A DNA stretch of 56,410 nucleotides from Bacteroidota bacterium (GTDB lineage: Bacteria > Bacteroidota > Ignavibacteria > UBA10030 > UBA6906), in the NCBI GenBank assembly GCA_017860635.1, contig JAGDMK010000035.1:1-56410 (forward strand), given 5' to 3'. The position numbers were made by a program, and so were the translations under genes. Shown here piece by piece: positions 14,292-41,012 of this stretch (the first letter of the stretch is position 1; every line of letters starts with the position of its first letter). The notes under the pieces were generated by a model. That model ran no database searches. It saw only the letters and a program-made list of their open reading frames with translations, and was not told the origin of the DNA.

Positions 14292-14344
14292 AAGCCTATA
14301 ATCAAGGATTGGAACCCTGGACAGTTAGTCTAGCGATTGGAACC
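14236..14344. repeat. Direct-repeat array: four GATTGGAACC cores at 27-28-nt spacing, organised as two copies of a 55/56-nt unit
   Basis: The core occurs at 14252-14261, 14280-14289, 14307-14316 and 14335-14344. The longer unit AAGCCTATAATCAAG(C)GATTGGAACCCTGG occurs at 14236-14265 and 14292-14320. The array lies in the divergent region between the AKR gene and the sensor kinase gene. Confidence 0.85.
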
Positions 14345-14595
14345 ATTGGCCGGTGAGCGCTGTTAAGCTATGGGTACAAGCTTGACTGTCACCCACGATT
14401 TCCGCATAGTGTGGGGTAACGTTTTCTCCTGTTCTCTCTATTTGAAAGCGCGATGTGATGCTCGGAGACACCCTGGCTCTTCTCCCGATCACTCCCCCCT
14501 TCCCGGGCATCGCATTCCTCCCATTCCGGCCCATTCGGGTCCGTTGTACTAGCCCAGCTCCAAACCGACATCCACTTCCCGAGGGACACATTCCC

Positions 14596-19770: not shown

Positions 19771-19800
19771 TTGACTTTCTGGATGTGCTATCTGTAAATT
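19771..19800 (+). promoter_or_regulatory. Candidate sigma-70-type promoter of the TonB-receptor operon (TTGACT-N18-TAAATT)
   Basis: TTGACT at 19771-19776 and TAAATT at 19795-19800, about 130 nt upstream of ATG 19928. A similar TTGACTTT box occurs at 53081 upstream of the GPH transporter gene. Confidence 0.35.
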
Positions 19801-19927
19801 GAACCGGTTAGACCGTTCAATCTCGTTCGATTGCCGTTGTCCATACCCCGCCGAACGGCGCCATACGTTCACGATACACAATAGATTCTGCGCCCACCAT
19901 GCCCACATGGGGAGGAGTCACTGCGAA

Positions 19928-22900: not shown

Positions 22901-23158
22901 CCTGGTGTGGCCTATCAACCGATGGAGAACGGCGTGGATTTCACACAGGCCGGGCTCAAAGGCGTCATCTACTATCAAGGCTCGAGCGGCAACTACTACG
23001 AGTACGTGAACAGCCAGTGGCAGCAGGTCGAGCAGGGCCGGCTGAACAGGATCCTGGAGGACAAGGCATACGTCGACATGCCGAACGCGGACACATACTG
23101 GTTCCTCGATCCTCGAAGGGTCTACTTTGGCCTGAAGGTCTCATTCAACTTTGACTAA
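19928..23158 (+). CDS. TonB-dependent outer-membrane receptor with an N-terminal carboxypeptidase-regulatory-like domain
   Basis: ORF 19799..23158, with ATG 19928 after GGAGGAG. Its parts, in order:
- signal peptide MERLTRAIALTLLLALLASPPLKSG
- CarboxypepD_reg-like block GKVAGIITDKVTGEALTAANISIVG...GTYSLRVSLIGY
- plug blocks IRGGGGDNVLFMVDGVTMRD and VERGGFNAEYGQVRSGVINVITKEG
- a long beta-barrel-type sequence ending YFGLKVSFNFD. Confidence 0.85.
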   Translation: MERLTRAIALTLLLALLASPPLKSGETGKVAGIITDKVTGEALTAANISIVGTSMGGAANLEGQYTILHVPPGTYSLRVSLIGYTTVTLNDVRVYIDQTARVDVALASELIEGREVVIVAEMPTIKKDVATSVVAVTANEISSLPVTNVVSAIGLQAGIRGGWGGPAGYASAPSFISNYQRGTVSVNQGPSIRGGGGDNVLFMVDGVTMRDPRNSEPMTRVPLNAVQEISVERGGFNAEYGQVRSGVINVITKEGAKRGYAGGLQLRVLPPQPKYYKVDGVRDVTDPYSFALRPFFDPDVCWTGTDNGAWDTYMRAQYPEFSGWNAVARVMNTDNDPNNDVTPLGAQRIFMYETRKRQINNEPDFDIDAGFGGPVPFIGEALGDLRFYGSYRSTREMLLFPLTRPDYRDFDANLRVNADITPTMKLQVSGAFGKQYTIRHNWDGTGTYFFPRYPNDIAGVSSYIGSSTDLLLMFSDFAFALADVGHQSAAARFTHTISSNTFYEVALEHFRRDYWVRPPAVRDTSQKYEVIPGFWEDSNPFGYWPYDVNGVLLPGASREFVSRARDNSVMNTTTIKGDLTSQINFHNLLKAGAEFVYNDLDFDYGTIGGASQDQVYSARVQKRVFPLRGGLYLQDKLELEEFTVNAGLRLEYTNSNVDWWAVSAYDQSFFSSKYNSVTEYATEASKAQWTLSPRLGISHPITEDAKLFFNYGHFKQLPQYETLFRVQRTSQNAMTSFGDPNLILAKTISYELGFDYLVFDDILIQMAGFYNDITDQQDFTVFSGTVGGFSYTKSTSNNYQDTRGFELTIRKNTGRWWTGFANYTYQVNTSGHFGSSRYFDSKGSQATWDAQTSNLYQDRPIPQPYARVNLYLQTPEDFGPEIFGHHILGGWGLNTLFDWQAGYWTTWNPSSLPYVAYNVKSVDFYNLYMRLEKMVDIGKFKVQLFMDINNVLNTLRLSTTNDQEYMKSLHLPTSPDYNNIPGDDKVGNYREPGVAYQPMENGVDFTQAGLKGVIYYQGSSGNYYEYVNSQWQQVEQGRLNRILEDKAYVDMPNADTYWFLDPRRVYFGLKVSFNFD

Positions 23159-23180
23159 TCGCAGACAAAAAGGGGCATCC

Positions 23181-25316: not shown

Positions 25317-25327
25317 GGAGCGCAGCG

Positions 25328-26380
25328 ATGAACTACCGTCAGAGTTTGCGTACGATAACCCTCGGCGTGCTGCTGGTCTGCATGGTGGCCGCTCCGGCAT
25401 CCGGGCAGGAGAATCAGAAACTGGCGCAGAGCGGTTTTCAGTTCCTCGGCGTGGTGTCGGATGCCCGCGCGGCAGCGTTAGGGGAAGCCATGACCAGTCT
25501 CCGGTCCGGCTCGAGCGCGCTGTTCTTCAATCCGGCCGGGATGGCCGGGATGAACGGTGATTTTGATTTCACTGCGAGCACAAACAAGTGGATAGCGGAT
25601 ATCACGCATACTACGTTCAGTGCGGCGGTGAATCCATGGCACGGCGACTATGGGATCCTCGGTTTCAGCATCCAGCACATCGACTACGGTGAGTTCCTGG
25701 GCACACGCGTCAACAGTGCAAGTCCGAAGGGTTACGATGATACCGGCACATTCTCCTTGAGCGCACTTGCCCTGGGACTCGGGTACGCGAAGCAGCTTTC
25801 GGAGCGATTCAGCGTTGGAGCGCATGTACGCTGGGTGCGGCAGGATCTCGGAGAAAGCATGACAGCGGTGAACATCCAGACATACTTCCCGGGGACAGAT
25901 TCGAGCTACCGGGTTGCGGACACGGTCTTCGTCAGCAACAAACTGTCGCCACTCGTGTTTGACTTCGGAACGCAATTCAAGACCGGTTTCAAAAGCCTGG
26001 TCTTTGGCATGTCGGTGCGCAATTTCTCCGGAGAGGTCGAATACGCGTCCGAAGGCTTTCAGGCACCGCTGGTGTTCACGTTGGGAATTTCCATAGATGT
26101 GATGGACTTCATCGAAGGTCTTTCGCCGGACCATTCATTGTACTGCAGCATCGATGCGAGTCATCATCGGGATCATCCAGAGCAGCTGAAAATCGGATTG
26201 GAGTACACGCTGATGGATCTGCTCAGTCTGCGGGCCGGGTATGCTTCGAGCAACAACGATGAGACGAACTTCTCTTATGGTATTGGAGTCTCCAAGTACG
26301 GTATCGCCTTTGACTATGCCTACACGCCATACGGAGTATTTGACGCGGTTCAGAGAATGACCGTGCGGTTTTCCTACTGA
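25328..26380 (+). CDS. PorV/PorQ-family-like outer-membrane beta-barrel protein
   Basis: It starts 11 nt after the previous stop, with a GGGAG RBS. The signal peptide is LLVCMVAAPASGQ. The N-terminal block AQSGFQFLGVVSDARAAALGEAMTSL..SSALFFNPAGMA resembles the PorV/PorQ (FadL-like) family signature. It has alternating beta-strand character and ends with an aromatic residue (..MTVRFSY). Confidence 0.65.
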   Translation: MNYRQSLRTITLGVLLVCMVAAPASGQENQKLAQSGFQFLGVVSDARAAALGEAMTSLRSGSSALFFNPAGMAGMNGDFDFTASTNKWIADITHTTFSAAVNPWHGDYGILGFSIQHIDYGEFLGTRVNSASPKGYDDTGTFSLSALALGLGYAKQLSERFSVGAHVRWVRQDLGESMTAVNIQTYFPGTDSSYRVADTVFVSNKLSPLVFDFGTQFKTGFKSLVFGMSVRNFSGEVEYASEGFQAPLVFTLGISIDVMDFIEGLSPDHSLYCSIDASHHRDHPEQLKIGLEYTLMDLLSLRAGYASSNNDETNFSYGIGVSKYGIAFDYAYTPYGVFDAVQRMTVRFSY

Positions 26381-26398
26381 TCCGGGGAAGGAAGAACT

Positions 26399-27646
26399 AT
26401 GAAGAATCCAAGGCGCCTGGTGACAGCCGCGGCCATGAGTGTGACGGGCTTCCTTGTGCTTGCGGCGGGTTGCTCGTATGATGTAGCAGCCCCGCTATGG
26501 GAGCAACCGTATTCGGCCCCGCCAACGCCCAGCATTACCAGCATTCAACCGGCATCTGCCCCCGCCGGGGTGAACACCATCCTTATTGCCGGGCAGAATC
26601 TAAGCGGCGTGCCCATGAGCAACGGCGTGTACTTCGATATCACCCCTGCAGACATTGTCCAGAAGTCGGCTACGGCCATCACCGTGCGCAGGCCTTCCTT
26701 GGCGACGAGTTCATGCACGGTGAACCTGGTGTCTGACAGCGCACTTGTCGTTGCCAAGATCTCATTCGGCAACATCGACCTTGTGATGGATCGCGTGGGT
26801 AATTTCCTGGACAACGTCGCACTCGCTGCTGTCGTGGTGGACAGTGCGGAGAATCTCTTTGTTATTTCGGGAGTGACGCCGGTATCGATCTGGAAAGTAT
26901 CGACGGGCGGCGACAAATCAGCGCTCATGACCAGCGGGATCACCGTGAGACCGCCGTTCGATGCAGCGCTGAGGAGCGGGGTGCTCTATCTGACGAGCAG
27001 CAACAGGGAAATACAGCAGGTCAACATTGCGACAGGGGTCGTCTCACGATGGACGCAACTCCCGGCAGGAAGGGTTGTGAAGGTGGGCGACTTCGACGCA
27101 AACGGATACTTCTATACAGGCGGCGCTGCTGGCGGCGATCTCTGCGTCATCCCTCCCAATCCGCCGACAACGCTCACGCTCGCTCAAATAACGCTGTCAG
27201 GATTCTATGCCGCCGACGAGATTCTCGCCGTCCGGGTCTTCAAAGGGTATCTCTATGTGGCCTCCAAAGCCACCGGGCAGACTGCGGGAAAGATCTGGCG
27301 GCACGCGCTTGGGAATGCCGGACAGCTGGGAACGCAAGAGCTGGTCCTTGATCTCAGCGCGCATGCCACCTTTGCCGCCCGGCAGGTCAAGGCGATCTCT
27401 CTTTCCGCATCGGGAGTACTCTATGTAACGACGGACGCGGAAAACCCGCTGCTCGTTTTCGATCCCGCCAACGGCAGCCTGGACTATTTCTACAAGGGCA
27501 TTGTTCCTCCCTATGGCAAGCACGCCGGCTGGGGGCGCAGCGTCTATCTGTATATGATCAGCGGGGACATTGCAAACACCAACACCGCTCTGCGATGGAA
27601 CGTCGCACGGGTGAATATGGGCACCCCCGGTGCCTCGAGCCAATGA
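26399..27646 (+). CDS. Lipoprotein with an IPT/TIG domain followed by a probable beta-propeller
   Basis: It starts 18 nt after the previous stop, with a GGAAGGAAG RBS. The lipobox is FLVLAAGC. The IPT/TIG-like block is PSITSIQPASAPAGVNTILIAGQNLSGV...ATAITVRRP. The remaining ~300 aa carry repeated strand motifs (..LYVTS.., ..GYFYTGG.., ..LYVASK.., ..LYVTTD..). Confidence 0.7.
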   Translation: MKNPRRLVTAAAMSVTGFLVLAAGCSYDVAAPLWEQPYSAPPTPSITSIQPASAPAGVNTILIAGQNLSGVPMSNGVYFDITPADIVQKSATAITVRRPSLATSSCTVNLVSDSALVVAKISFGNIDLVMDRVGNFLDNVALAAVVVDSAENLFVISGVTPVSIWKVSTGGDKSALMTSGITVRPPFDAALRSGVLYLTSSNREIQQVNIATGVVSRWTQLPAGRVVKVGDFDANGYFYTGGAAGGDLCVIPPNPPTTLTLAQITLSGFYAADEILAVRVFKGYLYVASKATGQTAGKIWRHALGNAGQLGTQELVLDLSAHATFAARQVKAISLSASGVLYVTTDAENPLLVFDPANGSLDYFYKGIVPPYGKHAGWGRSVYLYMISGDIANTNTALRWNVARVNMGTPGASSQ

Positions 27647-27711
27647 TCCCTGTATGAGCATCAGATTGCATCCGGGGCGAGTCTCTTAGAACAGCCAAAG
27701 GTTTTCACGCG

Positions 27712-27749
27712 AAAAAGGGTCGGAACGGGATTTCTGACCGTCCTTTTTT
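27712..27749 (+). terminator. Probable rho-independent terminator after the four-gene outer-membrane module
   Basis: AAAAA, then GGAACGG, a 9-nt loop and CCGTCC (a 6-bp stem with one bulge), followed directly by TTTTTT at 27744-27749. Confidence 0.5.
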
Positions 27750-27811
27750 CATACCGTTCAGCGGGATGCAGCGTCCGTGCCTGTCACGTTGTGAACGAAG
27801 GGGTCAGCGCA

Positions 27812-30652
27812 ATGGAGAAGAATCCCTGGTCCGCCATCCTTCTGGCGGCATGTCTGATCGCGCCACATGTCTCCCCGGCGCAGGAGAAACACGCAGATGG
27901 CATGCTGTTCGAACTCGTAGGGCAGAAGGAGACCGATCCCCGGTATATGAAAATCCAGATTTGCACGGAGAAGATTGTCCGTGTGATCGCCGCAAAGGAG
28001 AAGGACTTCTCTCTCCGCCCGAGTCTGATGGTTCAAAAGGCCTCATGGGACCCTGTCCCCTGGTCGGTGCGCGAGAAGACTGATCTGGTGGAAATCTCCA
28101 CGTCCAAACTGATGGTCCGGGTTCATCGGCGCACCGGGGCGGTGTCGTTCTTCGATGCGGCCGGCCGGCTGCTCCTGAAGGAGAAGGACGGCGGGGGAAA
28201 AGTGCTTACTGCAACAGAGGTCCTGGGGGAAAAGACGTGGCACATCCAGCAGCTCTTTGACTCCCCGGCCGATGAGGCATTCTATGGCCTGGGTGCGCAT
28301 CAGAGCTCACTGATGAACTACAAGGGATACGATGTGGATTTGCAGCAGCACAATATTGTCGACGTCATTCCCTTTCTCGTTTCGAACAAGCAGTACGGAA
28401 TCCTGTGGGACAACTACTCCCGTACGAAGTTCGGAGACACCCGGGACTACCAGCCGTTGTCGACCCTGAAGCTTTTCAATGCGCAGGGCAAACAGGGCGG
28501 GCTAACCGCCGAGTATTTCCGCAATGCGCAGTTCGGCTCGCTGCTGACGTCACAGACGGAAGCGACCATTGCGCACGAATATGTCGATTCCATGGGCACA
28601 TTTCCGGACGGGTTCAACCTCACTACAGGGAGCATTCGCTGGAGCGGTACCATTGGGTCCCATGAGGCGGGGACGCACAAGTTGCGGGTCTATTCCTCTT
28701 CGTACTTGAAACTCTGGCTGGATGGCAAGTTGATGGTCGACTCATGGCGGCAGAACTGGCTGCCGTGGATACACGAGCTGCGCCTGCCCATGAAACCCGG
28801 GAAACGATATCCGATCAGAATCGAATGGATACCCAACGGCGGAAATGTAGGGCTGACATGCCTCGGCCCTGAGGACCCCGTGTATCACAAGAGTCTTTCA
28901 CTCTGGTCCAATGTCGCCGATCAGATCGATTACTACTTTATCCATGGAAAGAATCCCGATGAGTTGATCCGGGGATACCGTACGGTGACGGGCCGAGTCC
29001 CTCTGATGCCCAAATGGGCGATGGGCTACTGGCAGAGCCGCGAGCGATACCGCTCACAGGATGAACTCCTTTCCGTCGTGCGGGAATTCCGTCGGCGGCA
29101 GTTCCCCCTCGACAATATTGTGCAGGATTGGTTTTACTGGAAAGAAGACCAGTGGGGGAGCCATGAGTTCGACTCCACGCGATTCCCCGATCCGGCCGGC
29201 ATGGTGAAGCAACTCCATGATACCCTTCACGCCCGCATCATGATCACAGCCTGGCCCAAATTCTATGTGGGGACGAAGCACTATGAGGAGTTCAGGGAAA
29301 AGGGATGGCTCTACATGCACAACATCGAGAAGGGTGTGCGCGACTGGGTGGGACCGGGATACGTGTCGACTTTTTTTGATCCTTTCAGCAGTGAGGCAAG
29401 AGATCTTTACTGGGCGCAGATCAACGATAAGCTCTTTCGCTTAGGAATCGATGCCTGGTGGCTTGATTCCACAGAGCCGGACCTTCAATCCAACGTGTCG
29501 CCTACCGAAACGCTCCTGCGCATGCACCCGAATGCACTGGGTACGGCGGCCCGATACGAAAACGCATATTCCCTGATGATGACCAGGGGTGTGTATGAGA
29601 ACCAGCGCAAAACCTCGCCCGACCAGCGCGTCTGTATCCTCACCCGATCGGCATACGCCGGGCAGCAGCGCTATGCGTCCGCGACCTGGAGCGGAGACGT
29701 GGCCACACGCTGGTACGACCTGGGAGCACAAATCAAAGCCGGGCTGAACTTCTCGCTCTCGGGCATCCCATACTGGACAACCGATATCGGCGGATTCGCG
29801 GTCGAGCCGCGCTACGAGCATCCAAACGATGCTGACCTGGATGAATGGCGGGAGCTCAACACGCGGTGGTTCCAGTTTGGGACGTTCTGTCCGCTGTTTC
29901 GCTCGCACGGGCAGTTTCCACTTCGCGAACCATTCAATCTGGCTCCCGACGGTCATCCTGCGTATCAGACCCTGCTTGCCTATACCAGACTCCGCTACCG
30001 CCTGATGCCCTACATCTATTCCCTCGCCGGAATGGTCACGCAAAGCGATTATACCATCCTGCGGGCCCTTGTCATGGACTTCGGTAACGACAAACGCGTC
30101 GCGAACATCGGCGACCAATTCCTGTTCGGTCCGGCGCTGCTGATCAATCCGGTAACGTCCTACAAGACAAGAGCACGTCAGGTCTATCTTCCCGCTGGCG
30201 CCGGGTGGTACGGACTGAGATCCGGTGTGCACTACAGAGGAGGCCAGACGATCCGGGCGGATGCGCCTTACACGGATATCCCGATATTTGTGAAGGAAGG
30301 GTCCATTGTGCCGTGCGGTCCCGAGATCGAGTATACGGATCAAAGGCCTGCCGATCCCATCAGGCTGTTCGTCTACACTGGCGCCGATGGGTCGTTCACA
30401 CTGTATGAAGATGAAGCGCTTAACTACAACTACGAAAAGGGCGCGTACGTGAGCATTCCGATGACGTACAGCGAGAAAGACACGCGTCTGACAATCGGAG
30501 AACGCAAAGGTGAGTTTCCTGGAATGCTCAGGAATCGCACGTTCGAAATCGTGTGGATCGGCAAAGGGAAGCCCGCCGGTATGGATTTTTCCGGAAAGCC
30601 AGACGCGGTGGTGAGCTACGATGGAACTCCACAATCGATCGGCATGAGGTGA
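27812..30652 (+). CDS. Glycoside hydrolase family 31 with an inserted PA14 domain (alpha-xylosidase-like)
   Basis: ORF 27791..30652, with ATG 27812. The signal peptide is MEKNPWSAILLAACLIAPHVSPAQE. A PA14-like block is present (LTAEYFRNAQFGSLL....IRWSGTIGSHEAGTHKLRVYSSSYLKLWLDGKLMVDSW). The GH31 nucleophile block is GIDAWWLDSTEPD, and ATWSGDV is the second catalytic-region block. Confidence 0.9.
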   Translation: MEKNPWSAILLAACLIAPHVSPAQEKHADGMLFELVGQKETDPRYMKIQICTEKIVRVIAAKEKDFSLRPSLMVQKASWDPVPWSVREKTDLVEISTSKLMVRVHRRTGAVSFFDAAGRLLLKEKDGGGKVLTATEVLGEKTWHIQQLFDSPADEAFYGLGAHQSSLMNYKGYDVDLQQHNIVDVIPFLVSNKQYGILWDNYSRTKFGDTRDYQPLSTLKLFNAQGKQGGLTAEYFRNAQFGSLLTSQTEATIAHEYVDSMGTFPDGFNLTTGSIRWSGTIGSHEAGTHKLRVYSSSYLKLWLDGKLMVDSWRQNWLPWIHELRLPMKPGKRYPIRIEWIPNGGNVGLTCLGPEDPVYHKSLSLWSNVADQIDYYFIHGKNPDELIRGYRTVTGRVPLMPKWAMGYWQSRERYRSQDELLSVVREFRRRQFPLDNIVQDWFYWKEDQWGSHEFDSTRFPDPAGMVKQLHDTLHARIMITAWPKFYVGTKHYEEFREKGWLYMHNIEKGVRDWVGPGYVSTFFDPFSSEARDLYWAQINDKLFRLGIDAWWLDSTEPDLQSNVSPTETLLRMHPNALGTAARYENAYSLMMTRGVYENQRKTSPDQRVCILTRSAYAGQQRYASATWSGDVATRWYDLGAQIKAGLNFSLSGIPYWTTDIGGFAVEPRYEHPNDADLDEWRELNTRWFQFGTFCPLFRSHGQFPLREPFNLAPDGHPAYQTLLAYTRLRYRLMPYIYSLAGMVTQSDYTILRALVMDFGNDKRVANIGDQFLFGPALLINPVTSYKTRARQVYLPAGAGWYGLRSGVHYRGGQTIRADAPYTDIPIFVKEGSIVPCGPEIEYTDQRPADPIRLFVYTGADGSFTLYEDEALNYNYEKGAYVSIPMTYSEKDTRLTIGERKGEFPGMLRNRTFEIVWIGKGKPAGMDFSGKPDAVVSYDGTPQSIGMR

Positions 30653-30654
30653 CA

Positions 30655-33096
30655 ATGACACGAACATGGATGAGTATGATCGCAATCGGTCTGTTTGCAC
30701 TTCCGGCATTCTGGATGACAGCATGCTCGGGCTCCTCTCCACGAGTCAGAAAGACTGAAGACTTTTGTGCGGGCTGGAAGTTTCATCTTGGCGACGTGAC
30801 GAACGGCTATGAGACTGCTCTGGATGATTCCCCGTGGCGGTTGATAGATCTCCCTCACGATTGGAGCATCGAGGGAGAGTTCAGCAATGACCACCCCGCT
30901 ACTCCCGGAGGGGGTGCGTTGCCTGGAGGCATCGGGTGGTACAGGAAGACGTTCACCGTACCGTCGGCCAACAAGGAAGGGCTGGTGTTCGTGGAGTTTG
31001 ATGGCATCTACAGGAACAGCGAGGTGTGGATCAACGGTCACGCTCTGGGCAAACGTCCCAATGGGTATATCTCCTTCCGATACGAGCTGACACCGTTCCT
31101 GAAGTATGGGAACGAGATGAATCTCATTGCGGTCAGAGTCGACAACGCGCAGCAGCCCAATTCCCGGTGGTATTCGGGCTCCGGGATCTACAGGAATGTC
31201 CGGCTAGTGACGACAGGGAAGCTCTTTGTGGACCAGTGGGGGACGTGCATCACAACTCCTGAGGTGACGGGGAAATCGGCGACAGTCTCAATCAGGACCA
31301 GGGTCCGCAATCGCATGCCTCACGATCAATCCTTCACCGTGCACACAGAAGTGATCGATGAGCAGGGAAAGAGCGTAGCCAGTACGGAAGCGCAAGGCAC
31401 TACGCTCAAGGATTCTGTCGGTGAGGTTGCCCAGACCCTCACAATTCAGAATCCTCCCTTGTGGTCGGTCGAACACACGCACATGCTCAAAGCGATAACA
31501 ACCATCGTGGTAGATGGACGGGTCAGTGATGACTATGAGACGCCGTTTGGCATCCGCACGTTCAGGTTTGCCAGTGACAGCGGTTTCTTCCTGAACGGGA
31601 AGCCGCTGAAGATCAAGGGCGTGTGCAACCACCACGACCTCGGTTGCTTGGGCGCGGCCGTCAATCGCAGGGCCCTGGAGCGTCAGCTTGAGATCATGAA
31701 GGCGATGGGGGTCAACGCTATCCGCACATCCCACAATCCGCCGGCACCAGAGCTTTTGGACCTGTGCGATGTGATGGGTTTTCTTGTGATGGACGAGGCA
31801 TTTGATATGTGGAAGAAAAAGAAAACAGACTACGACTACGCCCTGGATTGGGATGCATGGCACGTACGGGACCTGCAGGATATGATTCTCCGTGACCGGA
31901 ACCACCCCAGTGTGTTCCTCTGGAGCATCGGCAATGAGGTGCTGGAGCAATTTCAAAAGGAAGACAGCAGCGGGACGGTTATCGCGAAGGAGCTTGCAGC
32001 GATCGTCAGGGACATCGATCCGACCCGCCCCATCACCGCAGCCTGCAACGACCAGGATCCCTTGAATCCTGTCATCAGATCCGGGGCGCTCGATCTGATC
32101 GGCTACAACTACTCGCACACGACATTCGCAGCATTTCCGCAGATCTATCCCGGGAAGAGATTCCTGGCCACCGAGACTACTTCGGGGCTTGCGACACGCG
32201 GCTCCTACGATATGCCGTCCGACAGCATCCGTCGGTGGCCGCTGCGATGGGATAAGCCTTTTCTCGAGGGCAACCCCGACAATTCGTGTTCGTCCTACGA
32301 CAATTGCAGCACCCCCTGGGGATCCACACACGAAGAGACGTGGAAGATCGTGAAGAAACATGCATTCCTCTCGGGCATGTTCATCTGGACGGGCTTCGAC
32401 TATCTGGGTGAACCCACCCCGTATTCCTGGCCTTCACGAAGCTCGTATTTCGGCATTGTGGATCTGGCGGGTATGCCGAAGGATGTCTATTATTTGTATC
32501 AGGGCGAGTGGACGGACACGCCGGTGCTTCATCTGTTCCCGCATTGGAACTGGAGCGACGGAGAGCTCGTGGATGTGTGGGCATACACAAATTGCGACGA
32601 AGTGGAGTTGTTCCTGAATGGTCAGTCTCAAGGAACAAAAACCAAGACGGGAGACGACCTCCACATTGCATGGCGGCTTGCCTTCACGCCGGGTGCGTTG
32701 AAAGCTGTTGGCCGCAAGGCCGGAAAAGAAGACCTCATTCGCGAGGTGAGGACGGCCGGGATCCCTTCCACAATCGTGCTGACGCCGGACAGGAAGGTGA
32801 TCACGGCGGATGGCAAGGATCTGTCGTTTGTCACTGTCAGCCTCCTCGACGACGCTGGTACGCTCGTGCCGCACGCTGATAACCTCGTCACCTTTGAGGT
32901 GGAGGGTGAGGGCCGCCTGGTGGGTGTCGACAATGGCCTCCAGACAAGCCATGAACCATTCAAAGCATCATACCGGAAGGCGTTCAATGGACTCTGTCTT
33001 GCGGTTATCCAGTCAAGCAAGACTGCCGGACAGATTACGGTGACGGCGAGTTCTGCAGGTCTGAAGGGAGCAACAACTGTCATCACTGCGCGATAG
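30655..33096 (+). CDS. Glycoside hydrolase family 2 (beta-galactosidase-like), probable lipoprotein
   Basis: ORF 30553..33096, with ATG 30655, 2 nt after the GH31 stop and with GAGG upstream. The lipobox is FWMTAC. GH2 blocks are present: WYRKTF, NGYISFRYELT, NHPSVFLWSIGNEV (acid/base) and MFIWTGFDYLGEP (nucleophile). Confidence 0.9.
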   Translation: MTRTWMSMIAIGLFALPAFWMTACSGSSPRVRKTEDFCAGWKFHLGDVTNGYETALDDSPWRLIDLPHDWSIEGEFSNDHPATPGGGALPGGIGWYRKTFTVPSANKEGLVFVEFDGIYRNSEVWINGHALGKRPNGYISFRYELTPFLKYGNEMNLIAVRVDNAQQPNSRWYSGSGIYRNVRLVTTGKLFVDQWGTCITTPEVTGKSATVSIRTRVRNRMPHDQSFTVHTEVIDEQGKSVASTEAQGTTLKDSVGEVAQTLTIQNPPLWSVEHTHMLKAITTIVVDGRVSDDYETPFGIRTFRFASDSGFFLNGKPLKIKGVCNHHDLGCLGAAVNRRALERQLEIMKAMGVNAIRTSHNPPAPELLDLCDVMGFLVMDEAFDMWKKKKTDYDYALDWDAWHVRDLQDMILRDRNHPSVFLWSIGNEVLEQFQKEDSSGTVIAKELAAIVRDIDPTRPITAACNDQDPLNPVIRSGALDLIGYNYSHTTFAAFPQIYPGKRFLATETTSGLATRGSYDMPSDSIRRWPLRWDKPFLEGNPDNSCSSYDNCSTPWGSTHEETWKIVKKHAFLSGMFIWTGFDYLGEPTPYSWPSRSSYFGIVDLAGMPKDVYYLYQGEWTDTPVLHLFPHWNWSDGELVDVWAYTNCDEVELFLNGQSQGTKTKTGDDLHIAWRLAFTPGALKAVGRKAGKEDLIREVRTAGIPSTIVLTPDRKVITADGKDLSFVTVSLLDDAGTLVPHADNLVTFEVEGEGRLVGVDNGLQTSHEPFKASYRKAFNGLCLAVIQSSKTAGQITVTASSAGLKGATTVITAR

Positions 33097-33116
33097 GCCT
33101 GCGGATGGTGCGGGGG

Positions 33117-33208
33117 GAGATGAGATGAGATGAGATGAGATGAGATGAGATGAGATGAGATGAGATGAGATGAGATGAGATGAGATGAGATGAGATGAGA
33201 TGAGATGA
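33117..33208. repeat. Perfect pentanucleotide microsatellite (GAGAT)x18 (+GA), preceded by G6
   Basis: Read directly from the sequence. The G6 run is at 33112-33117. GAGAT units run from 33117 to 33206, followed by GA. The tract lies in the 118-nt gap between the GH2 stop (33096) and ATG 33215. Confidence 0.95.
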
Positions 33209-33214
33209 TGAACG

Positions 33215-35161
33215 ATGAGGGATTTCTGCGCATGTGTTGTTGTGGTTCTTTGTACCGCTCTGGTGGTGCCGGCGTACAGCCAGGACAGCGTGAATTGCTT
33301 TCTGACGGACTTCAACTCTAAACATGTCACCGTGCCTCCGTATGAAGATGTGCCAGCAGTTGCAGCGTCCTGGTCAGTGCAGGTTGTTGTGAACCCGACC
33401 GACACGGTCGGAAGAGTGTCGAAATACATCTTCGGCAATGCGGTGGCGGTTTGGGTGGGCACGAACCAGAACAATCCGACTCTGGTAGGGCATCTGAAGA
33501 AACTGTCGCCAACGCTCATTCGTTTTCCGGGGGGAAGCTGGTCAGATATCTACTTCTGGAATGGGAATCCCGGTGATCTCCCCACCACGATTCCCGATGG
33601 TGCAAACAATGGCCAGCCGATCGCGCTTTCACCTCAGATGGGCCCGTATCAAAGTCTCACGCCGGACGGTTACTATGCCATGCGCCAGGAACTTGGCACA
33701 CAGGGGCTCATCACAGTGAACTATGGATATGCCCGTTACGGTTTGGGTGATAATCCGGTGGCAAGGGCAGCCCATCTTGCGGCAGACTGGGTGCGGTACG
33801 ACAACGGACGCACCAGGTTCTGGGAAATCGGCAATGAGAACGGTGGACCCTGGGAAGCGGGGTGGCAGATTGACACGACCACAAACAAGGATAGCCAGCC
33901 GAAGATCATCACCGGTGAGCTCTACGGAAGACATTTCAGGGTCTTTGCCGATTCCATGAGAGCCGCCGCCGCGCAAATCGGTGCAACCATTTTCATCGGG
34001 GGGCAGGTCCTGCACTACGACGGCACGTCGAGCTGGAACGTCGCAGACCGTCAATGGAACGAAGGATTCTTCAGGGAAGCGGGTGGTGCGGCTGATTTCT
34101 ATGTCATGCACAACTACTTCAGTGCAAACAATTCCACAAACCCGCAGACCATCCTGACCTGGGCTTCGGACGAGCTGAAGAGGAATGGCGATTTCATCCG
34201 CCAGGACATTGCAGCGAAGCAGGCAGCATCAAGGCCTATCGCCCTGACAGAGTACAATATGGGTTCTTCCAATGCCACCGCAGAAGGGTCGTTCATCAAG
34301 GGCATGCACGCAGTGGTGCAGTTCTGCGAGCTGGCCAGACAGAAATTCGGATTGTCAGCTCGCTGGCTCGTGGCAAACTGGCAGGCGGATGGCATGTTCT
34401 ACAATGGAAGCACATCCGGCATCCCCGCATGGAACCCCCGTCCTGAGTTCTATTATGCCCATTTTGCACAGCGGTTCATGGGTGACCACATGGTCACGGC
34501 GACCGTTCCCGGCAGCCAGGTTATATCGGCGTGTGCGTCGACCTTTGCATCGGGCCATCTGGCGGTGATTGTCGTGAACAAGGGAGTGGGTACGTATGTG
34601 ATGAGCCTTGTTCCGAACACCTACGCTTTCGGAGACCGGTACTACGTCTATTCACTCAAGGGCGGTACGGACAACGGGAGTTTCTCTCAGGAGGTGTATG
34701 TCAATGACGATGGGCCGAGCGCACCCTCGTGGGGACCACCCATCGAGAGTCTGGACTCCCTGAAGGCATATGCCTATCCGACCGATGGAACACAGATCAA
34801 GGTGCCGCTTCCTGCGCGGTCAGTGCAGTTCATCCTGCTTGAGCCCGGCAGCCACATCATTACCAGCGCGGAAGATGTACCGTCCGGGTCAGTGGAGCAA
34901 TTTGAGCTGATGCAGAACTTCCCCAACCCGTTCAACCCGCACACCACAATCCAGTACTCGCTTCGGGAAGCCAGCACCGTATCACTGCGGGTGTACGACG
35001 TCATGGGAAGGGAAGTCGCGAGTCTTCTCAATGACGAGAGACGGCCAGCAGGGCGCCACGAAGTTGACTTCGAGGCGGAGAACCTCCCGAGCGGCGCCTA
35101 TTTCTATACGCTAAGGACAGAGCGCTCGAAAGCGACAAGAGTAATGATGCTTGTGAAGTAG
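33215..35161 (+). CDS. Clan GH-A glycoside hydrolase, GH51-like (alpha-L-arabinofuranosidase-like), with a T9SS C-terminal sorting domain
   Basis: The signal peptide is MRDFCACVVVVLCTALVVPAYSQ. LIRFPGGSWSDIYFWNG and FWEIGNENGGPWEAGW resemble the GH51 blocks (PGGNF..Y.W and GNEMDGPWQ.G). ALTEYN is the candidate nucleophile block. The CTD is FPNPFNPHTTIQYSL...SGAYFYTLRTERSKATRVMMLVK. The family call is tentative. Confidence 0.7.
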   Translation: MRDFCACVVVVLCTALVVPAYSQDSVNCFLTDFNSKHVTVPPYEDVPAVAASWSVQVVVNPTDTVGRVSKYIFGNAVAVWVGTNQNNPTLVGHLKKLSPTLIRFPGGSWSDIYFWNGNPGDLPTTIPDGANNGQPIALSPQMGPYQSLTPDGYYAMRQELGTQGLITVNYGYARYGLGDNPVARAAHLAADWVRYDNGRTRFWEIGNENGGPWEAGWQIDTTTNKDSQPKIITGELYGRHFRVFADSMRAAAAQIGATIFIGGQVLHYDGTSSWNVADRQWNEGFFREAGGAADFYVMHNYFSANNSTNPQTILTWASDELKRNGDFIRQDIAAKQAASRPIALTEYNMGSSNATAEGSFIKGMHAVVQFCELARQKFGLSARWLVANWQADGMFYNGSTSGIPAWNPRPEFYYAHFAQRFMGDHMVTATVPGSQVISACASTFASGHLAVIVVNKGVGTYVMSLVPNTYAFGDRYYVYSLKGGTDNGSFSQEVYVNDDGPSAPSWGPPIESLDSLKAYAYPTDGTQIKVPLPARSVQFILLEPGSHIITSAEDVPSGSVEQFELMQNFPNPFNPHTTIQYSLREASTVSLRVYDVMGREVASLLNDERRPAGRHEVDFEAENLPSGAYFYTLRTERSKATRVMMLVK

Positions 35162-35369: not shown

Positions 35370-37199
35370 TTACTTCGTCAGCATCATCTTCTTGGTGATC
35401 GAACCCTGCGCGGAGTGCAGGCGATAGAAATACATGCCGCTGGAAAATCCACTGGCCTGGAACGTCGCAGTGTGGACTCCTGCAGTCTGCACGCCGTCCG
35501 CCAGTACCGCAATCTCCTGTCCGAGCAGGTTGTACACAGAAAGGCGAACCTGTTTGGTCTGGTCCAGCGAATACGAGATTGTTGTGCTGGGGTTGAAGGG
35601 ATTCGGATAGTTCTGGTCAAGGCCAAACTCCGCCGGGATGTTCTCGGTTGACGGAACACTTGTGGCCGTCGAGAGTCCGGCGTAGGATGTGGCCATGCGG
35701 ATTTCATCGAAGATCAGGCGTCCATTGATGCCATCCCCTCCGAATTCCAATGCCATGTTGTCAATGCCCGCCGCAGGGACAGTACTGTTTCTCTTCACGA
35801 TCGCAGTGCTCGTGTCGGGTTGCGTGGCGGGATTCGGATCGACCCACATATATGTTCTGCAGGCATCCGTGCCTGTGCCGGACATGCTGATACTCATGAC
35901 AAGCCACTTTGGTCCAGCGGTGATCGGCACCGTGGAGACGTCGTCACCTGAGGCACCCGGCCATCCGCTGCCGCAGGTCCAGACTGGTGTTGTGGCTCCG
36001 CCGCCCTTGCCGAGCGCGAGGATTTCTGTCGTGCTGCTGTACAGCTTCACCATGAAATAGGTGTTCCCTACCGGGATGGAGTCTTTGACATCAATCATAT
36101 AGCTGAGCCAGTATTTCTTCCCGGCTGTATTCGGCCACGCCGCCGCCAGCGGGCGCTTGTAGCGGTTGTGGTCCGACCATGCATTGCTCTTCAGCACCTG
36201 GAGATGAGTCGTGTCATACGGAAGGGTCCAGCTGAGATCGGCGTAACTGAAGCGAGTCCCCGAGAACGCCACGAGGCCATCAACGCCATTATCACCTGGG
36301 TCGGTTGCCCACGGTCCTCCATAACCATCCGTCGCCGTTCCCACACCGTTCAGTGTCGTCAGCTTGTAGGTGAACGACTCCCGTGCTATTGAGCCTACTG
36401 GTGTAGCAGCGGAAAGATCGGCGAAGGAATTTGCGAGGGTGATCTCATCGAACACTATCCGGACATTCGGGCCGTCGCCTCCAAACTCCAGTGCGATGTT
36501 GTCGATGCCTGCAGCCGGAACCGTGCTGTTCCTCTTGACAATTGCAGTGCTCGTGTCGGGTTCCGTGGCGGGATTCGGATCAACCCACATGTATGTTCTG
36601 CAGGCATCCGTGCCGTTGCCGGACATGGTGATACTCATGACGAGCCACTTCGGTCCTGCAGTGAGTGCCACCGTGGAGACATCATCACCTGATGCACCAG
36701 GCCATCCGCTGCCACAGGTCCAGACAGGTGTTGTAGCTCCACCGCCCTTACCGAGCGCGAGGATTTCTGTCGCGCTGCTGTACAGCTTCACCATGAAGTA
36801 GGTATTGGCAACCGGCAGGGGCTCTTTGAGATCTATCAGATAGGCGAGCCAGTATTTCTTTCCGGCTGAGTTCGGCCACGCCGCGGCCAGCGGGCGCTTG
36901 TAGCGGTTGTGGTCCGACCAGGCAATGCTCTTCGTCCACTGGACATGGAAGGTATCGTGGGGAACCGTCCAGCTGAGGTCGCCGTAGCTGAAGCGGGAGT
37001 TTGCGATGGTCACGAGCCCTTCGATCCCATTGTCTTCGTTCTTCACCCACGGGCCGCCAAAACCACTGGTTGCTGTGCCCAGACCCGCCAGCGTCGTATG
37101 AGGATAGCTGAATGCCTCCCGGACGGGTGTCTGCGACAGGGCAAGCGAAGTCATCAGCAGGAGAAGCAATGCAATAGTGCAAACTGTTTTCATGCGCAT
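35370..37199 (-). CDS. T9SS-secreted hypothetical protein made of two tandem ~240-aa repeats plus a C-terminal sorting domain
   Basis: ORF 35370..37262, with ATG 37199 and AAGGAG 8 nt upstream. The signal peptide is MRMKTVCTIALLLLLMTSLALSQ. Residues ~27-262 and ~272-510 are paralogous. The CTD is YPNPFNPSTTISYSL....SGMYFYRLHSAQGSITKKMMLTK. Confidence 0.8.
   Translation of the reverse strand: MRMKTVCTIALLLLLMTSLALSQTPVREAFSYPHTTLAGLGTATSGFGGPWVKNEDNGIEGLVTIANSRFSYGDLSWTVPHDTFHVQWTKSIAWSDHNRYKRPLAAAWPNSAGKKYWLAYLIDLKEPLPVANTYFMVKLYSSATEILALGKGGGATTPVWTCGSGWPGASGDDVSTVALTAGPKWLVMSITMSGNGTDACRTYMWVDPNPATEPDTSTAIVKRNSTVPAAGIDNIALEFGGDGPNVRIVFDEITLANSFADLSAATPVGSIARESFTYKLTTLNGVGTATDGYGGPWATDPGDNGVDGLVAFSGTRFSYADLSWTLPYDTTHLQVLKSNAWSDHNRYKRPLAAAWPNTAGKKYWLSYMIDVKDSIPVGNTYFMVKLYSSTTEILALGKGGGATTPVWTCGSGWPGASGDDVSTVPITAGPKWLVMSISMSGTGTDACRTYMWVDPNPATQPDTSTAIVKRNSTVPAAGIDNMALEFGGDGINGRLIFDEIRMATSYAGLSTATSVPSTENIPAEFGLDQNYPNPFNPSTTISYSLDQTKQVRLSVYNLLGQEIAVLADGVQTAGVHTATFQASGFSSGMYFYRLHSAQGSITKKMMLTK
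35670..37121 (-). repeat. Intragenic tandem duplication (two ~715-nt units, 35670-36386 and 36414-37121)
   Basis: Long blocks are shared by both units: WSDHNRYKRPLAAAWPN.AGKKYWL, NTYFMVKLYSS.TEILALGKGGGATTPVWTCGSGWPGASGDDVSTV, and TDACRTYMWVDPNPAT.PDTSTAIVKRNSTVPAAGIDN.ALEFGGDG. Nucleotide identity in the core is high by eye, with only a few mismatches per 70 nt in the best stretch. Confidence 0.8.
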
Positions 37200-37640
37200 A
37201 GAATTGCTCCTTTGTGAATGGTGAGACTGCTGTGAATGTGAGCTGCAAAAGCGAACAGTCAATATTCCGTTTTACCGCTAACTGTATCGCTAACTATCGA
37301 GGATGAACGAAAGAAATTCGTTGACTTGGGAATCAATTGCTCGAGAGTTTTCCCAGGGATCCTGCTGACCGAAAATGAGGTGTGGGGATCGAATTCATGT
37401 GAATCTTGGATAAATCTATTAGAAAGTCAAGTCTTTTTTCTGGAATTGGCCACATTTAGCCACATTCGGTGATCGCCGCCCGGTCTGCACCAGTTGCGTC
37501 GTACGAGGGTCGATGTGAAGGGCGGGCGGAGCGGCAGGTGAGCCGTGAGGGCTACACTCCGTTGAACCGCCGCTTAAACCTCTTGTCTCGAGGTGCTGTC
37601 TAATTACGAAGCTTCCTAACAAATCACCAAGGAGGTACAG

Positions 37641-38794: not shown

Positions 38795-39552
38795 AGTGCC
38801 GCGAGGTGCAACACCAACTCTATCTCTACCGGCCGCCTGGCGAATTGACAACTGAACATCAGAAGGCGGTTGAACGCCATCTCGCCGTTTGTCCCGACTG
38901 CGCAGCCATGCGGGACTCCATGCTGGAGCTGGAGAAGCGAATTTCGGAGATCCGCGGGATGGAACCGAGGACTAAAGACCCAGCCGGCCTTACCGACACG
39001 GTCATGCGCGCGGCGCTTGATGCCGATGGTCCGGCGATGCGGTCTGCGGGAGTACTGTTTGACTGGTCGGTCTCGCCGGCTTTTCGCGTCGCAGCCTGCC
39101 TGATTCTCTTCCTTCTCAGCGGACTGTTTTTCGCGCAGACTGCTGTTGACGCAAGGAAGGTGACGGCGCTGGAGTACCGGCTTAAATCGGAACGTGTGTC
39201 CGCAGGAGATCGCTGGCCAGCAGCCGCCCGGAAGGCCGGGCTGTCTCCCCCAGTCTTGAGCCTGCTCACATTGCCTGCCCATGTGCGGAACAACGCTGCG
39301 GGCTATCTGAGCGGAATCACGAACGAACCGGACCTGGCTGCAGTGCTGGGGATGCTGTTCGAACGACAGCGCAATGAAGGGGATGCACTGTTTGAGTATC
39401 TGGCAACGCGCTATCCACGCCTCGCCACTGTCCGGATCGATGACGGCGTCGATGCTCGTGAACAGGAGATTCTCTCCTCAGACGGAGAGGCGTGTATAAA
39501 AGAGATTTCACAGTTGATGCACAAGACAGGAGTTCGTCATGACCGACCGTAG
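38791..39552 (+). CDS. Anti-sigma factor with an N-terminal zf-HC2 motif and one TM segment
   Basis: ATGA overlap with the sigma-factor stop. The zinc-finger motif is MKCREVQHQL....HLAVCPDCAAM (H-x3-C-x2-C). The central hydrophobic segment is FRVAACLILFLLSGLFFA. Confidence 0.8.
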   Translation: MKCREVQHQLYLYRPPGELTTEHQKAVERHLAVCPDCAAMRDSMLELEKRISEIRGMEPRTKDPAGLTDTVMRAALDADGPAMRSAGVLFDWSVSPAFRVAACLILFLLSGLFFAQTAVDARKVTALEYRLKSERVSAGDRWPAAARKAGLSPPVLSLLTLPAHVRNNAAGYLSGITNEPDLAAVLGMLFERQRNEGDALFEYLATRYPRLATVRIDDGVDAREQEILSSDGEACIKEISQLMHKTGVRHDRP

Positions 39553-40111
39553 ATCGTATGTCCTTGCCATGCTGGTGTCCGTGTTGTCACTGTGGACCAC
39601 CGGCTGTCTGGAGCATCAGGTGAAGACCACCATCAATGCCGACGGAAGCTGCGAACGCACGATCACGCTGAATGCAGACGCAAAAAAAGTTCCCGAGACG
39701 TCGTTTCCGCTTCCGACCGGTGCGGGCTGGGACACAAGCTGGGCTCAGGCAGGCGATGCACGGTACGCGGTATCCTTCTCAAAGAAGTTCAAGGATTTTG
39801 AAGGCCTGACGGGAGAATACACCCAACCCATTGACTCCATGAAAATCCACCTTGCGCTTTCAGTGAAGAAGTCCTTCAGGTGGTTCTACACATACTATGA
39901 CTATGCGGAGACCTATGGACGCTTCACGGATTACACGCTCGTTGATCCGCAGACGGTCCTCACCGAAGAAGAGATCCGCATGCTGACGTACGGAGATACA
40001 AGCAAGACCCTGAAGAACACTGCAGGACTCTCTCCTGACGCCTGCCAATGTGGCGGCGCACAAAGAAGAACTGTTCCGGACGCTTGTAGGGTATGCCGGT
40101 CCGGGGCTTGA
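39539..40111 (+). CDS. Lipoprotein of unknown function (probably only the 5' part of a frame-disrupted gene)
   Basis: It overlaps the anti-sigma stop by 14 nt. The lipobox is LSLWTTGC. The last ~30 aa (..AGLSPDACQCGGAQRRTVPDACRVCRSGA) look like out-of-frame translation of the next ORF. Confidence 0.55.
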   Translation: MTDRRSYVLAMLVSVLSLWTTGCLEHQVKTTINADGSCERTITLNADAKKVPETSFPLPTGAGWDTSWAQAGDARYAVSFSKKFKDFEGLTGEYTQPIDSMKIHLALSVKKSFRWFYTYYDYAETYGRFTDYTLVDPQTVLTEEEIRMLTYGDTSKTLKNTAGLSPDACQCGGAQRRTVPDACRVCRSGA

Positions 40112-41012
40112 GATGAAGGATCCGGAAGACCTTCTGAGAGATTTGTCCTCATATCGTGGCACCCGGGCAGAGATGTTCTCTGAAAGCGGTGTCACCGACG
40201 AGGGACTGAACGCCTTTGCCGAAATAGCGGCCAGGATACTCAAGAGTGACGCAACCTGGAAGCTTAAGGATTCCGTTCGTGCCGGGTGGCAGGATGTGCT
40301 CACGATGGTGGGAGGGAAAGGCACAAAGGGAGAGTCATTCACGAATGACGTGATCCTTCCAGGCATTCTTCTGGAGACCAACGCGCCGGAAGTGAAAGGG
40401 AGTACGGTTTCCTGGAAGTTCAACGTGGATCAGCTTGCGCTACGCGAGTTTGAAATGCGTGCAAGATCCAGAGTGGTGAATGAGTGGGCGGTTGCCGTTA
40501 CCGGTGTTCTCGTGCTAATGTCCTTATCTCACAAGAACCATTCTCACCGTTTGCCGGACGCTGCCTATCTGCAACTGGCAGACATACACTCCGCTTCCGA
40601 CGGAAACGCCCGAGGCATTGATGCCATTCCAGATCATGGTATGCCTGCCCGGTGCCCGCTCGCCATCCACAAGCACCTGCACAAGTTCCCCGTTCATATC
40701 ATAGACCGTCGCACGCACAGCACTCTGTTGCGTGATGCTGTATGCAATGGTGGTGCTTGGATTGAACGGGTTGGGATAGTTCTGGTCCAGCCGGAATTCA
40801 TGAGTGATGGCTTTGCTGAACGGCGGTTCCTTAACCACAGAGGTGGCTGTCTCAGCCGGATAGAATGTATATGCAACACCGCCCTTGTCGAACCACGAAT
40901 GGGACAGGTCGCTCTTGTTGAAGACGTACGAATAGCCATTGGATCTCGCCGGATCGTGCACGACCGGATCCCCATTTGCCGTGAATCCGGCCAGCATCAT
41001 CAAATGTCCTGA
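40050..41012 (+). CDS. +1-frame continuation ORF of the lipoprotein gene; the coding-like part ends near 40525 and the rest is antisense to the convergent peptidase gene
   Basis: The frame is open from 40014. It gives a plausible sequence (..AAHKEELFRTLVGYAGPGLEMKDPEDLL....SRVVNEWAVAVTGVLVLMSLS, a terminal TM helix) up to about 40525. No in-frame stop occurs until 41012, which is 490 nt into the opposing CTD-coding region. Confidence 0.35.
   Translation: MAAHKEELFRTLVGYAGPGLEMKDPEDLLRDLSSYRGTRAEMFSESGVTDEGLNAFAEIAARILKSDATWKLKDSVRAGWQDVLTMVGGKGTKGESFTNDVILPGILLETNAPEVKGSTVSWKFNVDQLALREFEMRARSRVVNEWAVAVTGVLVLMSLSHKNHSHRLPDAAYLQLADIHSASDGNARGIDAIPDHGMPARCPLAIHKHLHKFPVHIIDRRTHSTLLRDAVCNGGAWIERVGIVLVQPEFMSDGFAERRFLNHRGGCLSRIECICNTALVEPRMGQVALVEDVRIAIGSRRIVHDRIPICRESGQHHQMS

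Follow-up and report, generated by a model that had tools for sequence, protein, structure and literature searches.

Contingency loci are well known from pathogens adapted to a host, among them Neisseria, Haemophilus, Campylobacter and Moraxella. In Neisseria opa the (CTCTT)n repeat is located inside the signal-peptide coding region and switches the reading frame on and off, and in Haemophilus influenzae hif TA repeats lie between the −35 and −10 elements. Here we describe a related tract in a DNA stretch of 56,410 nucleotides (contig JAGDMK010000035.1 of assembly GCA_017860635.1; the whole stretch is called the window) from the metagenome-assembled genome (MAG) of an uncultured wetland Ignavibacteria bacterium. 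The element is a perfect (GAGAT)18.4 microsatellite (33117-33208, plus strand), placed between a glycoside hydrolase family 2 (GH2) gene and the start codon of a gene for a hydrolase of 648 amino acids that carries the sorting signal of the type IX secretion system (T9SS). The copy number of this hypervariable element differs between near-identical populations, and we consider whether it modulates the expression of the hydrolase. With opa the tract shares the pentameric unit, slipped-strand mispairing and a surface protein, but the opa repeat is coding whereas the GAGAT tract is entirely non-coding.

In Moraxella catarrhalis the uspA2 gene has (AGAT)6-23 in its 5′ untranslated region (5′-UTR), with an optimum at 18 units and a demonstrated effect on expression (Attia and Hansen 2006, as summarised in PMC4679880). 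As far as that summary goes, the two loci have near-identical letters (AGAT and GAGAT) in a leader, transcribed there and presumably here, a short way 5′ of the start codon of a gene whose product is a surface or exported protein, and their copy numbers, which depend on the strain, fall in similar ranges (6-23 and 15 to at least 28); the repeat being outside the reading frame, as in uspA2, a graded effect would be expected and not an on/off one. Going by the same summary, the loci differ in that uspA2 has a tetramer and the present locus a pentamer, and in that the effect on expression was demonstrated there and is proposed here (PMC4679880). Moreover, uspA2 as summarised is monocistronic, has its own promoter and belongs to a host-adapted pathogen, whereas the GAGAT tract separates two cistrons of a glycan-degradation operon, and the organism that carries it is a free-living wetland bacterium.

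Leader repeats of other units are also known. The (ATCTTTC)n repeat in the 5′-UTR of H. influenzae hmw1A and hmw2A is processed by RNase III, and its natural copy variation tunes adhesin expression gradually (PMC12721329). There, as here, a repeat of naturally variable copy number occupies the leader of an exported-protein gene, but the hmw heptamers (pentamers here) form the arm of a hairpin with a G-rich partner that is cleaved by RNase III, whereas (GAGAU)n is predicted to be unpaired and no long hairpin with a complementary arm is found (PMC12721329). In Streptococcus gallolyticus, (GCAGA)n acts as a leader-peptide attenuation switch at pil1/pil3 (PMC3894217). It resembles the present tract as a pentanucleotide of about 20 units in the leader of surface-structure genes, with a unit reused at more than one locus; however, the pil1 repeat is translated in a leader peptide that is followed by a terminator hairpin, whereas here the plus-strand frames are closed and there is neither a translated leader open reading frame (ORF) nor a terminator (PMC3894217).

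The nearest environmental precedent is provided by the TAACTGA heptamer arrays that immediately precede start codons in marine Beggiatoaceae, Cyanobacteria and some Bacteroidetes, for which binding of a post-transcriptional regulator has been proposed (PMC4679880). Like the GAGAT tract they belong to environmental non-pathogens, consist of short stop-codon-containing units a few nt upstream of starts and undergo whole-unit insertions and deletions between close strains, reaching 43 copies in some Bacteroidetes; unlike it, they number tens to hundreds of arrays per genome, mostly of 2-6 copies, while here there is a single array, and unit and lineage differ (PMC4679880). Variation driven by simple sequence repeats (SSRs) upstream of surface-protein genes is thus a known kind of system. 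What is new is its location in free-living Ignavibacteria, inside a glycan-utilisation operon, with GAGAT employed again at several secretome genes; searches of the literature yielded nothing on loci of this type in Ignavibacteria. Contingency-type variation in free-living environmental bacteria is thinly evidenced, and in the present case variation at the population level is documented from independent metagenome assemblies.

Copy number of the tract in near-identical populations

Tandem Repeats Finder places the tract at 33117-33208 with period 5, 18.4 copies, 100% matches, no indels and a score of 184. The GH2 stop codon, TAG (33094-33096), is followed by GCCTGCGGATGGTGC, GGGGGG, (GAGAT)18, GA, TGAACG and the ATG at 33215, the last G of the G6 run (33112-33117) being the first G of the first GAGAT unit. 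The unique part of the 5′ leader, ending in the G-run, accordingly covers 33097-33116 of the plus strand, and the last 6 nt 5′ of the start codon, TGAACG (33209-33214, plus strand), contain a TGA (33209-33211) that shares the frame of the downstream ORF. For the leader, Rfam gave no family at E ≤ 1. When the MAG (3.94 Mb in 395 contigs, 58% GC) was scanned for perfect repeats with unit sizes of 1-9 nt, no repeat longer than 20 bp was found besides the tract in any of the 395 contigs, the runner-up being (CTCAC)4, and a second GAGAT tract of at least four units was absent from the MAG. As in known SSR contingency loci, a long uninterrupted repeat stands above its genome background (18.4 units against a next-longest repeat of 20 bp), and both its presence and its perfection are far beyond chance.

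The comparison of the locus covered independent assemblies, made from separate samples, in which the flanking proteins are 100% identical. The gene call for the GH2 protein of 813 amino acids is identical in five other assemblies, and a look-up of protein clusters at 90% identity added one further GH2 variant only. Fully spanned alleles have 15 units in ENA ERZ27228609 (L029, G6-(GAGAT)15) and ENA ERZ27266656 (L038), 16 units in JGI 3300033413 (L032, with one single-nucleotide polymorphism in the spacer that follows the tract) and JGI 3300033482 (L035), and 18 units in the window. In ENA ERZ27276616 a contig assembled with k = 141 (L030) starts with 139 nt of pure repeat, that is, at least 27.8 units (about 28). 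In ENA ERZ27276622 (L036, L031) the locus is split at the tract, the left contig ending after 16 units and the right one starting with 18, which suggests heterogeneity within that sample. The Logan contigs (k = 31; L033, L037) end after 6 units, as expected for this k, and are uninformative on length. Because tracts of 75-90 nt fit inside single k-mers of 99-141 nt, the spanned alleles are not inventions of the assemblers.

Outside the tract these assemblies show 2 mismatches to the window over about 4 kb upstream and about 5-12 over 6.8 kb downstream, a flank divergence of about 0.1-0.2% and at most 0.2%. The tract is therefore hypermutable: near-identical populations, co-existing or successive, differ by whole units and carry from 15 to at least 28 of them, and units are gained or lost much faster than the flanks gain substitutions, which is the signature of slipped-strand mispairing. 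A first-pass annotation of the window, made from the letters alone, had described a perfect (GAGAT)18 at this position as prone to slippage. Repeat detection and the sequence itself agree with the description, the span of 15 to at least 27.8 units bears out the slippage, and two of the checks that it proposed gave a copy number that differs between related assemblies, and is not fixed, and no other GAGAT tract (at least four units) in the genome.

One contig was of a different nature. The last 190 nt or so of L138 (ENA ERZ27276616, k141_7003858) hold a degenerate tract of about 17 units with about 12 substitutions (GAGAA, GAAAT, GACCT). Its immediate flanks are unusually mismatched (5/34 and 3/16) and the remainder is 99.7% identical to the window. 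The sample is the one that also gave the contig with at least 27.8 perfect units. The degenerate tract is either a contig tip full of errors or an allele that has decayed and thereby become stabilised. The 30-mer of the right flank had no match in the scan of metagenome contigs.

The probable operon junction and the exported hydrolase

The genes from 19799 to 35161 are all co-directional. They are arranged as a polysaccharide-utilisation-locus-like cluster in the order TonB-dependent receptor (19799-23158), three outer-membrane or unknown proteins, a GH31 enzyme with PA14, the GH2 enzyme, the tract and the T9SS cargo of 648 amino acids; a sensor kinase and a response regulator are located upstream of the cluster, and the tract lies near its end. 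The upstream cistron (30655-33096, plus strand, 813 amino acids) was assigned through the Pfam domains Glyco_hydro_2_N, Glyco_hydro_2, Glyco_hydro_2_C, DUF4982 and Glyco_hydro2_C5. Neither a sigma-70-like promoter nor a terminator is predicted around the tract, in the window allele or in the allele common to the other assemblies. Taken together with the spacing of 15-30 nt between the orthologous genes, this would place the tract in an intercistronic leader inside the operon, transcribed but untranslated.

The downstream gene (33215-35161, plus strand), presumed to be the one affected, encodes a putative secreted hydrolase of clan GH-A (GH51/GH79-like), assigned from Pfam, motifs and fold, which carries both a signal peptide and the C-terminal sorting domain of the T9SS. 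Its linkage to the tract conforms to contingency loci, in which the gene concerned encodes a surface or secreted protein. In Pfam only Por_Secre_tail is matched (residues 569-641), no catalytic domain being found, and no PDB sequence matches at E ≤ 0.01. The motifs FWEIGNE (E208) and TEYN (E346) are invariant in 29 orthologues. The AlphaFold (AF2) model has a mean confidence (pLDDT) of 80.7, and its top Foldseek matches are GH51 arabinofuranosidases (E about 1e-21, TM score 0.62-0.70), followed by GH79 and GH44 enzymes that score almost as well, with 13-17% identity in the structural alignments. The model and the motifs thus agree with the (β/α)8 barrel plus β-sandwich of GH51, with the GNE acid/base and the nucleophile Glu, but the sequence matches neither the family hidden Markov model nor a characterised member. 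For the modelled protein, GH51-like is a fair description of the fold only (clan GH-A barrel and β-sandwich). Por_Secre_tail, the model and Foldseek are in keeping with the T9SS cargo of GH51-like fold proposed in the first-pass annotation; the statement that this is the sole exported enzyme of the locus does not hold, as a second gene with a T9SS C-terminal domain is present at 35370-37262 on the minus strand.

Full-length orthologues of the hydrolase gene are missing from five genomes of the same genus, and the gene is therefore accessory. In the closest orthologue (G014, 71% identity) the GH2-hydrolase pair is kept, with 15-30 nt from stop to start and no tract (TAA-CGGGGGACAAACACG-ATG), and there too a G-run follows the GH2 stop, as CGGGGGACAAACACG. 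A short-unit repeat was found upstream in 0 of 80 orthologous loci. Judged by this comparison, the tract arose in this lineage, by insertion or expansion, within an operon junction that measures 15-30 nt in the closest orthologue. In G014 the sequence AGATGAGAT, equivalent to 1.8 units, covers the probable start codon and would be a plausible seed, and duplication of the start-codon context may have given rise to the repeat. In the same region (L010, G014:C7, approximately 1453-1500) AGATGAGATAC is located at the probable start codon (ATG AGA TAC), and the 10-mer GATGAGATAC is common to the G014 start and to the common allele, where it is formed by the 3′ end of the tract and the first spacer bases.

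The 3′ side of the tract in the window

In the common allele the tract is followed by 31 nt, consisting of ACCCCATGCCTACTGCAAGGAGA and then GATGAACG, before the ATG. The window is without the first 23 nt, and the junction (33206-33207, plus strand), located by comparison with the other assemblies, reads GAGAT|GATGAACG (letters GAGATGAGAT|GATGAACGATGAGG) instead of the GAGAT|ACCCCATGCC of the common allele. The spacer ACCCCATGCCTACTGCAAGGAGA is complete in L029, L030, L031, L032 and L035 and partial in L033 and L038. The arrangement of tract, 6 nt and ATG is hence unique to the window assembly, all five other assemblies reaching the 3′ side having 31 nt; the distance of 6 nt and the gap of 118 nt from the GH2 stop to the ATG, given earlier for this locus, are correct for the window and not as its general geometry. 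Since the other assemblies all have the spacer, the window geometry is atypical and may be a misassembly.

The spacer carries the canonical Shine-Dalgarno (SD) sequence AAGGAG, 9 nt 5′ of the ATG, and most of an upstream ORF (uORF) of 13 codons. The genome uses SD sites: over all its genes, GGAG, GAGG and AGGA show an enrichment of about 5-fold between −13 and −9. The uORF of the common allele (MRYPMPTARRDER*) begins at the final ATG of the tract, and its TGA overlaps the main ATG (ATGA); starting in the last repeat unit, it is independent of copy number.

The window is also without 71 nt (40019/40020) and 188 nt (40516/40517) that are present in L029, L030 and L031, neither gap having flanking repeats. 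The first one frameshifts a gene of 370 amino acids located 3′ of an extracytoplasmic function (ECF) sigma/anti-sigma pair and the second one removes the gene end, which accounts for the split lipoprotein gene without a stop at 39539-41012. A strain with several deletions and a contig with assembly errors are about equally likely. At 38832-38834, in the region of the zf-HC2 anti-sigma gene, the window has an in-frame insertion of 3 nt (GCC) relative to the same three contigs.

For the junction itself, the probability that an assembly error brought (GAGAT)18 into direct contact with GATGAACG, while the population in truth has the structure G6-(GAGAT)n-spacer-ATG, falls somewhat short of even, and in either case the repeat is undisputed. 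The presence of the spacer in every other assembly that reaches the 3′ side, the two further losses without flanking repeats in the same contig and the junction itself, which is no clean fusion of the tract with a lone copy but leaves an extra GAT, all point to an error. However, De Bruijn assemblers do not normally join on an overlap of 2-7 nt, and at a sister locus with an identical protein the spacer that parts the tract from a lone GAGATGAGA is likewise missing from G200:C43 and kept in SRR32688029. The window's own allele is not to be trusted without reads.

GAGAT and related arrays elsewhere

Arrays of (GAGAT) of at least five units occur in 7 of the 68 genomes of the family and in none of 209 genomes from eight other families of the order. 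Besides the window they form four distinct loci, in genera g21 and g13, and are located 18-70 nt upstream of the SD and ATG of exported-protein genes, which encode a lipobox lipoprotein of 441 amino acids, a signal-peptide protein with FG-GAP, and BNR-like proteins in which Por_Secre_tail comes after the BNR-like part. In the three sister loci that were scanned the array lies downstream of a strong promoter (TTGACA or TTGACT, a 17-nt spacer, and TATATT or TATGTT, with 10-11 of 12 matches), and hence in the 5′ leader. There the arrays read (AUCUC)n, opposite to the orientation in the window.

Copy number varies at these loci as well. Two MAGs differ by 11 against 9 units with 0 mismatches in 2.5 kb of flanks, and the same lipoprotein is preceded by 5 units and a 55-nt spacer in SRR32688029 and by 21 units, with the spacer lost, in G200. 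Across species the orthologous loci have 9, 10 and 11 units in g21 and 5 and 5 units in g13, all of them perfect. In L266, L270 and L271 (g21) an ATG-initiated leader ORF (MSHL...) runs through (ATCTC)n, and its stop moves with copy number, being a TAA located at −35 in the allele of 9 units and at −15 in those of 11 or 21 units. As a conserved feature this ORF was rejected, its ATG being CTG in two of five alleles (L267, L268).

At least 119 metagenome contigs contain (GAGAT) arrays of at least eight units; many are eukaryotic-looking and some prokaryote-like, and the hydrolase locus of the window was not found among them. The prokaryote-like L167 has a window-like layout of stop codon, (GAGAT)15, AAGGAG, ATG and a protein that begins with a signal peptide. 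L150 and L185 (WNGL01005287.1 and WNFX01006940.1) share a pair of co-directional ORFs separated by a compound microsatellite, in which (GAGAT)16 or 13 precedes (AAGAT)6-7 and the copy number differs between the two contigs. The rarity of such microsatellites in environmental bacteria, assumed in the first-pass annotation, is thus true of this genome and not beyond it, as GAGAT recurs in related genera and in many metagenome contigs.

In two other families, (TAGAG)6-10 arrays occupy similar positions (G090:C23:13247, G091:C2:237916, G042:C27:5572, G244:C19:56523 and C101:5421), and arrays of pentamers may be more widespread in the order. For at least two of these TAGAG arrays (L258, L259), the genes found about 50-65 nt downstream are divergently oriented and encode proteins with hydrophobic N-termini.

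Copy number and expression of the hydrolase

On the plus strand the window leader comprises 17 'MR*' mini-ORFs and one 'MVRGEMR*', and every frame meets a TGA within 15 nt, so that no ORF crosses the tract. The chain of AUG-AGA-UGA mini-ORFs noted in the first-pass annotation is thereby recovered, as are the three open frames of the minus strand (one spanning ORF per frame) and the independence of the coding frame from copy number. A coding repeat on the minus strand was nevertheless rejected: the three ORFs shift in length and frame between alleles and are antisense to the conserved GH2 gene. Two effects that had been attributed to copy number in the same annotation did not survive. Promoter spacing is rejected because there is no predicted promoter to re-space: neither allele has a sigma-70-like hexamer pair that the repeat could separate or adjoin, and a tract of 75 to at least 139 nt cannot serve as a −35/−10 spacer. 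Leader structure is rejected because folding shows no dependence on copy number; in ViennaRNA ensembles run for both allele types with n = 0-35 the tract is unpaired, and neither SD nor AUG changes in predicted accessibility between n = 2 and n = 35.

Taking into account that: (i) the structure model fails; (ii) a leader-peptide model fails, as set out below, and (iii) the promoter-spacing model fails, an effect of length remains, and we propose that copy number is a stochastic, heritable modulator of the amount of hydrolase relative to GH2, more a rheostat than an on/off switch. In the model, the variable would be the length of the AUG/UGA-dense untranslated stretch (about 17 AUG-AGA-UGA mini-ORFs), at 5 nt per unit. 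This stretch would part the ribosomes that terminate on GH2 from the downstream SD and AUG, leaving the mRNA bare and exposed, and a longer stretch would weaken translational coupling or re-initiation. From the GH2 stop to the hydrolase start the gap is about 30 nt in the orthologue and 126-190 nt or more here. In a rarer event the tract would fuse with the lone downstream GAGAT and the SD-bearing spacer would be deleted, as in the window allele, giving a low-expression state. The probability that copy number is a functional modulator of hydrolase expression is put at about 0.5.

The strongest competitor is a neutral or slightly deleterious microsatellite, arisen by slippage from a proto-repeat at a start-codon context, tolerated in front of an accessory gene and of no meaningful effect on expression. 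It is a serious candidate, although clearly on the less probable side, and the observations that weigh against a modulator are largely the ones that favour it. Thus, predicted folding does not change with n. Orientation is not conserved, GAGAU in the window against AUCUC in the sister loci, which makes a shared mechanism at the RNA level unlikely, no single mechanism fitting all loci. The allele spectrum is broad, with no obvious discrete states, and the gene is accessory, so that relaxed selection could tolerate a neutral repeat. GAGAT arrays are found in assorted metagenome contexts, in some prokaryote-like contigs (L201 and L145, for instance) with no gene start nearby; and AGATGAGAT in G014, with its 1.8 units, offers a plausible seed. 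However, a neutral origin sits poorly with a tract that is the sole long short-unit repeat of a 3.9-Mb genome, with the location of the GAGAT unit in the 5′ leaders of exported-protein genes at 5 of 5 distinct loci of the family, and with arrays that persist, still perfect, at orthologous loci across species. It is also unlikely that a leader lengthened by 75 to at least 139 nt and containing 14 to 27 or more decoy AUGs would be translationally silent.

The recurrence of the unit could have another cause. That a single family uses one pentamer only, at five distinct loci, by exported-protein genes and in either orientation, would be accounted for if the array were a cluster of binding sites of variable length, with two units to each helical turn (a periodicity of 10 bp) and a number of sites that slippage alters, recognised in DNA or RNA by a factor that is specific to the family and controls exported-protein genes, and the two orientations fit a site in duplex DNA better than an RNA element. 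This explanation is improbable: the factor is hypothetical, the 5 to at least 28 copies far exceed the need of any known operator, the window array lies inside an operon with no promoter nearby, and the TAGAG arrays at similar positions in other families point to general slippage and not to a specific site. A switch of the pil1 type, in which the repeat belongs to a leader-peptide ORF and the frame (n mod 3) sets terminator disruption or access to the main start, has next to no chance: the pentamer shifts the frame at each step, as does the S. gallolyticus (GCAGA)n (PMC3894217), and some sister loci have an ATG-initiated ORF through (AUCUC)n with a stop that moves with n, but at the window locus the sequence refutes it, with a TGA closing every plus-strand frame and no terminator hairpin 3′ of the tract, while the single uORF extending as far as the main ATG (13 codons) is independent of n and the leader ATG of the sister locus is CTG in two of five alleles.

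If copy number tunes expression, as in the length model, glycan foraging and the cell-surface make-up of soil and wetland Ignavibacteria would be stochastically diversified within clones, with bearing on evasion of phages and predators, on secreted enzymes as public goods and on variation that is hidden by the MAG consensus. Contigs that break or differ at such tracts carry a biological signal. A wider reading, that one family of free-living Ignavibacteria has recruited GAGAT/ATCTC as a reusable hypermutable leader module for secretome genes, namely those of lipoproteins, of BNR/sialidase-like T9SS cargo and of a GH51-like hydrolase, possibly read by a lineage-specific factor, is unlikely. Were it true, it would amount to a 'phasome' outside host-associated pathogens, that is, a stochastic, heritable mosaic of surface and secreted proteins in clonal populations of soils and wetlands, which would include single cistrons within a polysaccharide-utilisation operon whose enzyme stoichiometry would be bet-hedged.

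Other features of the window

Two further repeats were observed in the window. An imperfect tandem repeat at 14236-14351, with a 28-nt unit in 4.1 copies (or 55 nt in 2), lies directly upstream of the Reg_prop/Y_Y_Y sensor kinase gene at 14455-17778. The minus-strand T9SS gene at 35370-37262 contains an internal duplication, its 525-nt segments 35730-36254 and 36471-36995 being 85% identical (BLAST).

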